In this document: positions 54,001 through 57,000 of the stretch, piece by piece | Layout: every line of letters begins with the position of its first letter | Numbering within the stretch: the stretch's first letter is position 1 | NCBI GenBank assembly: GCA_964485195.1 | Contig: CAZAIK010000003.1 | Location: forward strand, 64,800 to 125,992 | Direction of reading: 5' to 3' | DNA length: 61,193 nt | Source: an uncultured Methanosarcinales archaeon | Lineage (GTDB): Archaea > Nanobdellota > Nanobdellia > Woesearchaeales > CAIVOO01 | Position numbers: made by a program

Positions 54001-57000
54001 GAAAGCGGAAGCAGGACTATTGCCATTGAGCTGCCGAAAAACCATAATAAGTGTGCAGTAGGTGAAGCAACATTATATAATGCTACTTCAGTGATATTCC
54101 TGAAGTAAGTTATCATGACAGTGTCTATATGCAATATAACCTCCGCCATGAATAAAGTAATTATCAATGGCAATCCGAAAAGGATCATTTTCTTCGCTAT
54201 TTTTTTGAAATTCCCTATTTTTACTTTAAAGAACTGAGGGAACAACTTTGTCAGGAAATAAGGGATATAGACTATAAAGGAAAGTGAGAAGACCAGAATG
54301 TAAGCGAGTATTGGGGAAGTAATACTTTTATCAAAATTAAATAGAATTATTGTGGCGAGGAAAATAAATATCATCCTCGCTAACTTTGCTCCAGAAACCC
54401 ATTTCATTTTCTGGTAGCCTCTGAAGATAGCAAGCAAAACATTTTCAATAGGCGATAAGAAAACTACAAGACAGTAAAGTCTGACAGCATGTATTGCCAA
54501 TTCATTCTTGAAATAATGCTGGGCTAAATAAGGAGCAAACAACCAAAAGACAATCGCGATAGAGAACGAAAGAATGAACTGAAAAGACAGAGTGAATATT
54601 ATTGCTGTTTTAATCTTGCTAAGCTCTTTTTTCACCTTAAACTCAGCAATAAACTTGACTAAGGAATCTCTCAATCCAAAATCTTTAATGATAACTAAAA
54701 GACCGAATGTAGAGAATATTGAATAAAGCAAGCCAAACTCAATTGGGGTCAAATTTCTTGCTATAACTAATCTCACTAAATAACCGAAAAGAGCGGCGAT
54801 TACCGTGAACATGAATACAAGAGAACCTCCAACAACAACCTTCTTAGTATAATCAGTCATTTCTTCAGATTCATAAATCCCGCTTTATAAATTTAATGAA
54901 AAGTATATAAATAAGCTCTTATTTTCCCTGTTTTAGCACGGCCATAGCGGCCTGGTAATGCCTGTACCCATTCCGAACACAGAAGCCAAGCAGGCCCGCG
55001 TTCTCCCGAGTACTGCGTTTTCACGCGGAAAACGGAGAAAGCTGTGCGCTTTTAACAAATTGCTATTATTTGTTTTTAGTATGAAAAATATTCACTTGCG
55101 TAAACCAGTAAGAATAAAGTGATAACTGTCAAAGGCAGAATCTTGCTGCTCAGCAGTCTTGCTCTTTTCGCAATTCTGGCAATCATACTCACGATAAGAC
55201 AAAAGAAGCAAGGCTAAGAATTGCCAATAATAATTTATTTTTTTTATTAAATACACATTTTGAAAATATTTATAAATATTCACTTTCGCTCATCTTTCAT
55301 GGCGAAAATCTTCATTTCAGGCGTTGCCGGATTTCTTGGCAGCTATCTTGCTGACAGGATGCTTGAGGAAGGCCATATTGTAACAGGCAATGACACCCTT
55401 GAAGGGGGTTACAGGGACAATGTCAACCCAAAAGTGGATTTCCACAAGGTTGACTGCCTTGATTTCAATAAAATGCTTGAGCTCACCAAAGGGGTTGATG
55501 TTGTTTATCACACAGCGGCTTTTGCTTATGAAGGATTGAGCGTTTTCAGCCCTAATGTTGTGACAAGGAATGTTTTTCAAAATACTATGTCTCTTCTTGC
55601 AGCAGCAATACAGAACAAGGTTAAAAGATTTGTTTTTTGCTCAAGTATGGCAAGATACGGGGAAAACAAGGTTCCGTTTACAGAAGATATGGAGCCAAGG
55701 CCGCAGGACCCTTACGGAATTGCAAAGGTTGCAGCAGAGGATGAGATAAAACTGCTTTGCGACGTGCACGGGGTGGAATGGGTCATAGCAGTGCCTCACA
55801 ACATCATAGGCCCGAGGCAGAAGTATGACGACCCTTTCAGGAATGTTGCAAGCATAATGATAAACCTGATGCTTCAGGGAAGGCAGCCCATAATCTACGG
55901 GGACGGAACGCAAAAGAGATGTTTCAGCTTTGTGCAGGACTGCGTCGACGTGCTTGAAAAAATGGCATTTGACGAGAAGGCAAAAAGCCAGATAGTTAAC
56001 ATAGGCCCTGATGAGGAATTTGTGCCAATCAACGAGCTTGCGCGAACAATCGCAGAACTGCTTGATTTCGAGCTTGACCCTGAATACTATCCTGACAGGC
56101 CACAGGAAGTGAAAAACGCAACCTGCTCTGCAGACAAGGCAAGAAAACTTTTTGGTTATGAAACAAAATACACCCTGAAGCAGGGACTGAAGGAAATGGT
56201 AGACTGGATCAAGAAAAGGGGGCCAAAGCCGTTCGAATATCATATTCCCCTGGAAATAGTCAATGAAAAGACCCCGAAGACCTGGACAGAGAAAAAGTTC
56301 TAGTTTTTAAAGTAATAAAGCTTCTCTGAAGCGATGCCAAAACAAAACCAAAAATAAAATGAAAAACCGCGCACGCCGGATGATTTCTATGCCGAACTTT
56401 TAGTGGTTGCGCGCTGAATGCGTCGTTGCCTTCGCACTTACACGCCAACTCTATCAAACCCGTGTTTTGCGGGAGTTCGTGTTGTCTCTTTTTGAGGAGG
56501 GCTTCGTGCTTAGATGCTTTCAGCACTTATCCCTTGGCGCGTAGCTGCCCTGCGTACCCTGTCGGATAACAGGTAGACCAGAGGCGCCGAACCACCGTTC
56601 CTCTCGTACTAAGTGGTCCTTCCCCTCAGACAATGAACACTCCTAGTAGATATTACACATACTGTCTCACAACGTATTGAACCCAGCTCACATACCTTTT
56701 GATGGGTGAACACCCCCACCCTTGGACGCTGCTGCACGCCCAGGATAGGTAGAGCCGACATCGATGAAGCAAGACGCGCCGTCGCTATGAGCGCTCGGGC
56801 GCGACCACTCAATTATCCCCGGAGTAACTTTTCCGTCACATCTGCGCCCCATCAAGGAGCGTCAGAGGATCGCTAGGCCACACTTTCGTGTTTGGGTCTT
56901 GGGTTAGTGAAGATCCAATCAGGCTGGCTTTTGCCCTTGCACTCCACATCCGATTTCCGACCGGATTGAGCCAACCTTTGGGCCCTCTTGATATTCTTTC

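Follow-up and report, generated by a model that had tools for sequence, protein, structure and literature searches.

A U2452-U2453 pair in the peptidyl transferase centre of a woesearchaeal 23S rRNA is a further example of natural variation in several archaeal lineages

The window, meaning the whole stretch of 61,193 nucleotides that was analysed, carries on its minus strand a 23S rRNA gene of 3623 nt including a 719-nt intron (56380..60002). Against the archaeal large-subunit rRNA model of Rfam (RF02540, gathering score 50) the gene scored 2498.2 bits over model positions 1-2987, which identifies it as an archaeal LSU rRNA. It gave the only 23S match in the whole assembly (G000), which comprises 32 contigs and is 99.47% complete. 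The contig ends with the rRNA operon, and the 16S match runs off the end of the window. The intron is of the group I type and follows E. coli position 1931 (57325..58043, minus strand); its score with the Rfam model Intron_gpI was 40.1 bits (E-value 1.3e-8) and did not reach the gathering score of 50. It comes with an ORF for a LAGLIDADG endonuclease (57419-58045; Pfam LAGLIDADG_1, E-value 4e-26). The intron is present in the relative G004, is absent from G001, G005, and G074, and is separate from the variant described below.

The peptidyl transferase centre (PTC) is regarded as almost without variation; for drug contact and resistance, C2452 and A2453 are textbook positions. E. coli numbering was set by alignment of the gene to rrlH of strain K-12 (L032:2760-5663). 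The PTC strand G2444-G2454 (56810..56820, minus strand) reads GGGGATAATTG, with U2452 at 56812, U2453 at 56811, and canonical G2447, A2450, and A2451. The strand G2494-U2506 (56758..56770, minus strand) has U2497 at 56767 and A2499 at 56765, together with canonical U2500, C2501, A2503, and U2504; G2505 and U2506 are likewise canonical in the rrlH alignment. In the RF02540 alignment the consensus is GGGGAUAACaGagu and ugcuACcUCGAUGUC, against GGGGAUAAUUGAGU and UGCUUCAUCGAUGUC in the present gene. A first-pass annotation of this DNA had reported U2452, U2453, and U2497 in the only 23S rRNA, had placed the first two in the PTC, and had described all three as departures from the archaeal consensus, which is borne out here; the variant lies in the A-site cleft. 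Its numbering had been assigned by motif and was correct, since the rrlH alignment places 2452, 2453, and 2497 likewise.

Four linked positions were absent from that annotation, namely A2499, which is a further departure from the consensus, G2576 (at 56689), a one-nucleotide deletion near C2573, and C2254 of the P loop (57012..57012, minus strand). The deletion leaves the segment 2569-2579 (56686..56696, minus strand) one nucleotide below consensus length, with the gap at consensus C2573 in the Rfam alignment. In a table of 26 rows from the order, A2499 is the normal state (24 rows) and position 2254 is U in 21 rows. The uL3 finger reads WRPHH against WHPHH, which is a single observation.

Such bases could also stem from faulty assembly or binning, from a chimera in the rRNA contig, or from a dead copy of the gene, and the location of the operon at the contig end, with the 16S match cut by the end of the window, would fit an error of this kind. 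Contigs of two sequencing runs had been reported as identical to the gene, and we found 0 differences over 56709-57100 for both X1 (record 6) and X2 (record 13); the two runs belong to one study, and one of them is perhaps the source sample. However, two further studies yielded identical pieces, as X3, an RNA library, matched without differences over 56733-56895 (record 22) and X4 over 56755-56926 (record 28). X4 record 29, from a relative at about the 93% level, showed 9 differences, and among the 7 listed none lies at 56811/56812; foreign contigs in X3 have one extra base at 56691 relative to the present gene. The runs sharing 0.33-0.41 of the sampled words contained mostly conserved rRNA of other organisms, and read support was limited to exact contig pieces. 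The catalytic core is canonical throughout (G2061, A2062, C2063, G2251-G2253, G2447, A2450, A2451, G2505, U2506, G2553, U2585, and A2602). Together with the single, full-length, high-scoring copy and the 163-nt contig without differences from the RNA library, this points to a functional 23S rRNA, although presence in an RNA library is not proof of transcription. In addition, the gene groups with that of the genus mate (support 100/99), and the changes fall at linked sites and not at random. We therefore regard an artefact as highly improbable.

The double change had been described as seen in this species only, which proved wrong, and the rarity implied for it is not supported. Within the genus Methanosarcina, all 75 of the 23S copies read UU at 2452-2453; they came from the 36 genomes with a match among 59. 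The pair also occurs in Methanolobus and Methanococcoides, in some Methanomicrobiales, in Thermoplasmatota, and in other Woesearchaeota, as well as in G074 of the same order and in metagenome contigs. Beyond Methanosarcina, it recurs in four or more groups of archaea. A scan of the genome collection gave at least 120 UU loci, of which, as labelled, at least 74 were from Methanosarcinaceae, at least 8 from Methanomicrobiales, at least about 8 from Thermoplasmatota, and at least 10 from Woesearchaeota or Nanoarchaeia. The methanogens have the flank GTCGGTT, not GTCGGCT. A degenerate 16-base pattern hit mostly chance sites (19 of its 121 loci were 23S), but still it first exposed the UU pair of the methanogens. 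Of the 109 readable UU loci among those listed, 74 have C at 2499, 32 have U, and only 3 have A. UU can thus do without A2499, and a Watson-Crick U2453-A2499 pair was rejected as a general rule. Several archaeal lineages have the UU pair as an ordinary natural state, and the present gene is a further example of known variation. Literature and term searches returned no published remark on the pair, which is itself present in many published genomes, and PMC3256160 and PMC2952860 contain nothing on these PTC positions.

The row tables show that this DPANN order (Candidatus Woesearchaeota/Nanoarchaeota) is rich in second-shell variation. As had been noted, C2504 is found in the family mates G004, G005, and G006, to which G002 can be added, and the genus mate G001 has C2503; G002 also reads UG at 2452-2453. 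The gap near C2573 is common to six of the 26 rows (the present species, G001, G004, G005, G006, and G034). The other five carry U2576 with C2503 or C2504, whereas the present species alone has G2576 with A2503, U2504, and UU. In a larger set of 105 Woesearchaeota-type rows, U2453 occurs in 11, nearly all of them with U2499. The contigs L412 and L414 have U2453/A2500 in place of A2453/U2500.

The alternative set is thus carried by G001, the sister of the present species in the tree (support 100/99, in agreement with genome-based kinship), although the two are 93-95% identical in the PTC region. Conversely, the complete set of U2452, U2453, U2497, A2499, A2503, U2504, G2576, and a shortened 2571-2575 segment recurs in two metagenome contigs, L404 and L405, with 82-86% identity. 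An AU test rejected a clade of these contigs with the present species (p = 0.022), and their set is apparently of independent origin. The test result is fragile, because the two contigs sit on a very long branch and have an odd base composition. Two candidates were discarded. Recombination from a UU donor does not agree with a PTC region that shares 95% identity with the CA-bearing genus mate but only 77-83% with other UU lineages and 82-86% with L404/L405. A linkage between U2452 and C2254 was suggested by three of the four U2452 rows in the table of the order, but in the larger set, after correction for relatedness, it came down to three independent pairs (p 0.5-1).

Such patchy variation could be due to neutral or slightly harmful drift in a weakly constrained second shell of a symbiont with small populations, in which case the combinations of bases would be meaningless. 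On the 105-row tree the minimum number of changes was 9 at 2503, 7 at 2504, 12 at 2576, and 11 at 2254, as drift would predict. Covariation was likewise non-significant after correction for relatedness, with four independent pairs on well-supported branches for C2504 and U2576 (mean 3.5 concordant, median p 0.25) and two for U2453 and U2499. It fits as well that the PTC is less conserved in archaea than in bacteria, as described in the available passages of a recent preprint (10.1101/2024.11.12.623245). On the other hand, UU is fixed across the free-living genus Methanosarcina, the same eight features come together again in L404 and L405, and the two sets exclude each other within the clade that has lost the nucleotide near 2573. 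Moreover, C2452U alone makes yeast temperature- and cold-sensitive (PMC2275155, as excerpted), so the change is not neutral everywhere. Taken together, we consider drift a rather unlikely explanation.

A reading that we put forward tentatively, as possible but short of probable, is that the second shell of the woesearchaeal PTC occupies discrete, mutually exclusive multi-site configurations. One would be U2452, U2453, U2497, A2499, and G2576, and the other C2452, A2453, A2499, C2503 or C2504, and U2576, both lacking one nucleotide near C2573, in the second accommodation gate. These might flip between sister species and be reached again by unrelated lineages, as on a natural epistatic landscape of the ribosomal active site that is possibly driven by natural inhibitors. 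If so, the genetically tractable Methanosarcina, which is already UU, would be a test bed.

The A-site cleft, which receives the amino-acid side chain of the incoming aminoacyl-tRNA, has C2452 as one of its walls, and A2453 is stacked below that base. Non-Watson-Crick contacts hold the two bases, C2452 to 2504/2500 and A2453 to 2499/2500. Molecular dynamics on the 50S subunit from Haloarcula marismortui gave hydrogen bonds U2504-C2452, U2500-C2452, C2499-A2453 (99% occupancy), and U2572-G2032, and C2499A breaks the 2499-2453 bond (PMC4652758, in the part available). For E. coli, the available text of the preprint describes pairing of Psi2504 with C2452 and of A2453 with U2500, and regards the shorter archaeal uL3 as permitting variation (10.1101/2024.11.12.623245).

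We conclude that the UU set is genuine and fixed and probably represents a functioning 23S rRNA in which the A-site cleft and its second shell vary in a compensated way, one of several alternative states that archaea tolerate in a coupled network. The network would connect 2452-2504-2500, 2453 with 2499/2500, 2504/2505 with 2576, and 2572/2573 with the uL3 finger. C2452U retains a pyrimidine wall, and catalysis therefore continues, as the fixation of UU in Methanosarcina shows; since this fixation extends to all 75 copies, an organism can live with a UU ribosome. The A2499 of the order already removes the A2453-C2499 contact known from Haloarcula, and A2453U might permit a U2453-A2499 pair, to judge by base identity only. 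In the clade without the nucleotide near C2573, C2503 or C2504 goes with U2576 in the sister species, and U2452/U2453/U2497 with G2576 in the present one. The 50S subunit of M. acetivorans, whose 23S should read UU according to the genus-wide result, has been solved by cryo-EM at 2.4 Å, and the available part of the paper reports close alignment of its PTC with that of H. marismortui, with no remark there on these bases (PMC12605026). Because the two PTCs align closely, the structural effect of UU may be small.

The earlier annotation had also connected the variant with resistance to anisomycin, chloramphenicol, or linezolid. A2453U is an anisomycin resistance mutation in Halobacterium. An adaptive explanation would be that UU and its neighbours were selected to evade inhibitors that occur naturally in mat, sediment, or wetland and bind in the A-site cleft; the use of puromycin, a drug of the same cleft, for selection in Methanosarcina counts against this. 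As far as the cited papers could be accessed, C2452U confers anisomycin resistance in yeast and Halobacterium, with the base losing its protection by anisomycin (PMC2275155), C2452U, C2499U, and U2500C make H. halobium resistant to sparsomycin, as C2452U does T. thermophilus (PMC13462262), and C2499A with G2032A confers linezolid resistance (PMC4652758). At the level of base identity, the present gene thus shares the resistance-type changes C2452U and C2499A with characterised mutants, and by analogy the cleft is predicted to offer drugs an altered surface and to bind inhibitors of the anisomycin and sparsomycin type more weakly. The link nevertheless rests on mutants of other organisms, and chloramphenicol at 100 ug/mL inhibits M. 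mazei, which belongs to a UU genus, with the accessible text unsure of the target (PMC5494495). Evasion would be in line with the other resistance-type changes of sister species (U2576, C2504) and with the recurrence of the multi-site set in the unrelated L404/L405 lineage, but epistasis alone can also yield recurrence. A similar proposal is made for Thermoprotei in the discussion of the preprint (10.1101/2024.11.12.623245). On balance, drug evasion seems to us unlikely as the driving force.

For this single window the finding is modest. Its wider meaning is that C2452U/A2453U is ordinary in several lineages of archaea, among them a model methanogen whose ribosome structure has been solved, and that variation at 2254, 2452, 2453, 2497, 2499, 2500, 2503, 2504, about 2573, and 2576 is found in a DPANN order outside the sole study of divergent PTCs in archaea. 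Ribosome engineers thereby gain natural, viable multi-site combinations.

Among known systems, the Methanosarcinaceae (Methanosarcina, Methanolobus, Methanococcoides, and Methanohalophilus) resemble the present species in having U2452 and U2453 in all copies and canonical G2447, A2451, U2504-U2506, and U2585. They differ in A2497, C or U2499, U2510, and a full-length 2571-2575 segment, in place of U2497, A2499, C2510, and a segment shorter by one nucleotide. Identity is 77% with Methanosarcina and 95% with the genus mate, which bears CA, and because the flanking sequence is woesearchaeal in type, the UU of the present species arose independently. Eukaryotic cytoplasmic 25S/28S rRNAs share U2453 and U2497 but keep C2452 and have U2499 where the present species has A2499. 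Woesearchaeota rows with C2452/U2453/U2499, and L215, are nearer to the eukaryotic state. Table 1 of PMC2275155, as available, is consistent with this register and does not include the eukaryotic bases at 2453, 2497, and 2499.

The PTC of Thermoprotei and Methanomethylicia is comparable as another archaeal case of natural variation in 2447-2453, with rearranged contacts, a permissive short uL3 loop, and a proposed link to inhibitors (10.1101/2024.11.12.623245). The available text of this preprint reads as the first-pass annotation had stated, names these two groups only, and gave 0 occurrences of 'DPANN' in a term search. The hyperthermophile Pyrobaculum calidifontis has G2447A, A2453C, U2500C, C2501A, and U2504C, whereas our mesophilic DPANN archaeon has G2447, U2453, U2500, C2501, and U2504, and thus a different set, with variation at 2452, 2453, 2497, and 2499. 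This amounts to two varied sites in 2447-2453, none in 2500-2504, and two just outside (2497, 2499), compared with up to six positions, and no stated threshold, in the available passages of the preprint. Finally, the laboratory mutants C2452U (C2820U in yeast, also Halobacterium and Thermus) and C2499A with G2032A (from Mycobacterium smegmatis, modelled on Haloarcula) share, in the parts of the reports available, the base changes at 2452 and 2499 with the present species. Drug selection yielded them as single or double changes, and they come with growth costs, including a 60S biogenesis defect along with the temperature and cold sensitivity in yeast, whereas the bases described here are naturally fixed together with other changes.

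Numbering of the variant bases was based on E. coli K-12 rrlH (L032:2760-5663), in which GGGGATAACAGG corresponds to positions 2444-2455 and GGCACCTCGATGTCGGCTC to positions 2494-2512. Alignment of the woesearchaeal 23S rRNA to rrlH placed U2452, U2453, U2497, and A2499 at window positions 56812, 56811, 56767, and 56765, respectively, all on the minus strand, and the Rfam alignment gave identical departures from the archaeal consensus. As the two alignments agree, the first-pass annotation, which had reported C2452U, A2453U, and A2497U with positions numbered by motif, was correct in its observation and numbering, although it had missed position 2499. 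The catalytic and first-shell bases G2061, A2062, C2063, G2251-2253, G2447, A2450, and A2451 are canonical, as are U2500, C2501, A2503, U2504, G2505, U2506, G2553, U2585, and A2602.

The archaeal 23S rRNA gene (window 56380-60002, minus strand; Rfam, 2498.2 bits, full model) is intact and single-copy, with one 23S match in the assembly (99.47% complete, 32 contigs). Rfam located a tRNA and the 3' part of a 16S rRNA gene upstream of it, and a 5S rRNA gene (window 54934-55050) on the plus strand, 1.3 kb past the 23S 3' end. Being on the opposite strand, the 5S gene is outside the 16S-tRNA-23S transcription unit. A 719-nt insertion directly after E. coli position 1931 (window 57325-58043, minus strand) gave a sub-threshold Rfam match to a group I intron (40.1 bits versus a threshold of 50, E 1.3e-8) and carries a LAGLIDADG_1 ORF of 208 amino acids (window 57419-58045, minus strand, E 4e-26). 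The same site is occupied in the family mate G004, while no insertion was found there in the genus mate G001, the family mate G005, or G074, a member of another family of the order.

Logan contigs of four sequencing runs were aligned on window 56500-57100; these are contigs rather than raw reads, so rare variants are possible. Neither run X1, possibly the source sample, nor X2, which belongs to the same study as X1, differed over 56709-57100. A 167-nt contig of X3, a wetland RNA library from another study, was identical over 56733-56895, an occurrence that does not amount to proof of transcription, and a 172-nt contig of X4, from a third study, was identical over 56755-56926. These exact contigs from two further studies remove the earlier worry that the variant was supported by a single study. 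A 93%-like relative in X4 (record 29) had nine differences, and among the seven listed none was at 56811 or 56812.

The variant is thus real and its first interpretation partly right, but the claim that the double change is limited to this species does not hold, as U at both 2452 and 2453 (UU, where the archaeal consensus is CA) occurs in many genomes already published. In the order, with like sequences titled Candidatus Woesearchaeota or Nanoarchaeota, 78 of the 151 sampled genomes, including the unpublished G137 and G117 (both CA), gave 81 matches. CA was found in 72 of them, CU in four (G127, G078, G099, and G100), UU in two (the present genome and G074), UA in two (G118 and one of two copies in G145), and UG in one (G002, of the same family). 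The G145 copies differ at 2452 (UA versus CA; C25:34354-34378 and C27:62372-62396), the result of either within-genome heterogeneity or mixed binning. A wider scan of one genome per species, with a 27-base pattern requiring UU, yielded at least 120 loci. According to the record titles, these included at least 74 from Methanosarcinaceae (Methanosarcina, Methanolobus, Methanococcoides, and Methanohalophilus), at least 8 from Methanomicrobiales, at least about 8 from Thermoplasmatota or Methanomassiliicoccales, at least 8 from Woesearchaeota, and at least 2 from Nanoarchaeia. When the pattern was left open at 2452-2453, 36 of 59 genomes in the genus of Methanosarcina sp. 2.H.T.1A.6 matched and all 75 of their 23S copies were UU, so UU is the fixed state of this cultured, genetically tractable genus. 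In a sample of its phylum (301 genomes searched, 141 with a match), among the 150 of 209 matches listed, UU was seen in 20 genomes, UA in 5, and CU in 1. In several of the 23S genes with UU, the helix 89 loop is extended by insertions of about 25-45 nt that directly follow GAGTTCAT and lie between the two strands of the peptidyl transferase centre (PTC) (L156, L168, L184, L221, L232, L237, L239, L255, and L256).

Sequence comparison indicates that UU arose independently in the present lineage. Its PTC region is 95% identical to that of G001 and 93% to that of G004, both CA, versus 77-83% to other UU lineages. In a tree built without the trait columns, the genome and G001 are sisters (support 100/99) within the family clade (95/95). 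The two share 88% identity over the whole 23S and 69% in uL3, so their common genus is not shallow.

The first-pass annotation had overlooked further differences at 2499, 2254, 2576, and around 2573. In a table, against E. coli, of this 23S and 25 rows of relatives from 24 genomes, A2499 was present in 24 of the 26 rows, and the order taken as a whole is thus without the consensus C2499; position 2254 is C here versus U in 21 rows. G074, the other UU genome of the order, has U2497, U2499, and C2500. At position 2032 (window 57224, minus strand), where the alignment is less certain, E. coli and Haloarcula have G, which in the latter is bonded to U2572; this genome shares U with G001, and G004, G005, and G074 have A. 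The segment 2571-2575 is one nucleotide shorter in six rows (this genome, G001, G004, G005, G006, and G034), with the gap at consensus C2573 in the Rfam alignment (window 56686-56696, minus strand; related loci L003, L004, L006, L008, and L018). This position, missing in family f1 and G034, belongs to the second aminoacyl-tRNA accommodation gate. Five of the six rows carry C2503 (G001) or C2504 (the other four) alongside U2576, the change classically known from linezolid resistance, while only the present genome combines G2576, A2503, and U2504 with UU. Among 116 Woesearchaeota-type loci and the present one, a tree could be built from the 105 rows that were sufficiently complete (CA 91, CU 11, UG 2, UU 1), and nearly all CU rows carried U2499. 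The minimum numbers of changes were 9 at 2503, 7 at 2504, 12 at 2576, and 11 at 2254, counts that are probably too high given the short alignment.

In molecular dynamics, the H. marismortui 50S subunit shows hydrogen bonds U2504-C2452, U2500-C2452, U2504-U2500, and U2572-G2032, and a C2499-A2453 bond at 99% occupancy; with C2499A this bond is lost, A2453 then pairs with U2500, and C2452 reorients (PMC4652758). The pairs Psi2504-C2452 and A2453-U2500 are given for E. coli (10.1101/2024.11.12.623245). Judged by these contacts, the varying positions are direct partners. Consistent with coupling, the two base sets are mutually exclusive within the short-segment clade of the 26-row table, and the Woesearchaeota MAG loci L412 and L414 combine C2452 and U2453 with G2499 and A2500, as if the A2453-U2500 pair had been exchanged for U-A. 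Three metagenome contigs emerged from a scan for the joint presence of UU, U2497, and A2499, and two of them (L404 and L405; 82-86% identity to the present sequence) also have A2503, U2504, G2576, and the shortened segment, again fitting coupling. A clade of these two with the present genome was rejected by the AU test (p = 0.022), a result made fragile by their very long branch and odd composition. On independent pairs, C2504 versus U2576 was not significant (4 pairs, 3.5 in the same direction, p 0.25), nor were the other coupling tests (2-3 pairs each). The base identities suggest a U2453-A2499 pair here; UU does not need A2499, since among the 109 readable of the listed UU loci position 2499 was C in 74, U in 32, and A in only 3.

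The uL3 'W-finger' reaches the second accommodation gate with its tip, which contacts 2572/2573 there (PMC2577335). This tip reads GPWRPHH in the present uL3 (L398:1477-2460, G000:C6), GPWHPHH in G001, G004, and G005, GPWTPKK in G074, and GGWSGQGH in G031. Yeast H256, a residue in contact with A2572, is the counterpart of the one that follows the tryptophan. The single difference from G001, G004, and G005, R for H, is no more than a lead.

A ribosome with UU is compatible with life, as Methanosarcina shows. Yeast C2820U (C2452U) is viable, anisomycin-resistant, and temperature- and cold-sensitive, and anisomycin, which stacks on C2452 and hydrogen-bonds its N3, no longer protects the base (PMC2275155). 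Sparsomycin resistance in H. halobium results from C2452U, C2499U, and U2500C (PMC13462262), and linezolid resistance from C2499A with G2032A (PMC4652758). By analogy, the present ribosome would bind cleft-directed inhibitors more weakly. On the other hand, puromycin selection is routine in Methanosarcina although this drug uses the same cleft, and this counts against a simple resistance story. So does the inhibition of M. mazei by chloramphenicol at 100 ug/mL, of which the authors were unsure of the target (PMC5494495).

A Methanosarcina 50S structure was published in 2025, and its PTC aligns closely with that of H. marismortui; the passages and terms searched in that paper held no mention of bases 2452/2453 (PMC12605026). 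From the genus-wide result, M. acetivorans itself would be UU. Within the library searched, no paper was found to comment on PTC variation in DPANN or on UU as a natural state of methanogens. The text of a preprint (10.1101/2024.11.12.623245), whose figures, supplements, or journal version may show more, does not contain 'DPANN' and has 2452 in a figure legend only. As far as this text goes, conservation of PTC positions is weaker in archaea than in bacteria, and for divergent PTCs it proposes evasion of drugs and a short uL3 as the permissive factor. Such PTCs are described for Thermoprotei and Methanomethylicia alone, with changes at 2447, 2453 (to C), 2500, 2501, and 2504. Natural PTC variation in archaea was already known, and what is new here is the specific combination in this genome and the pattern in its order.
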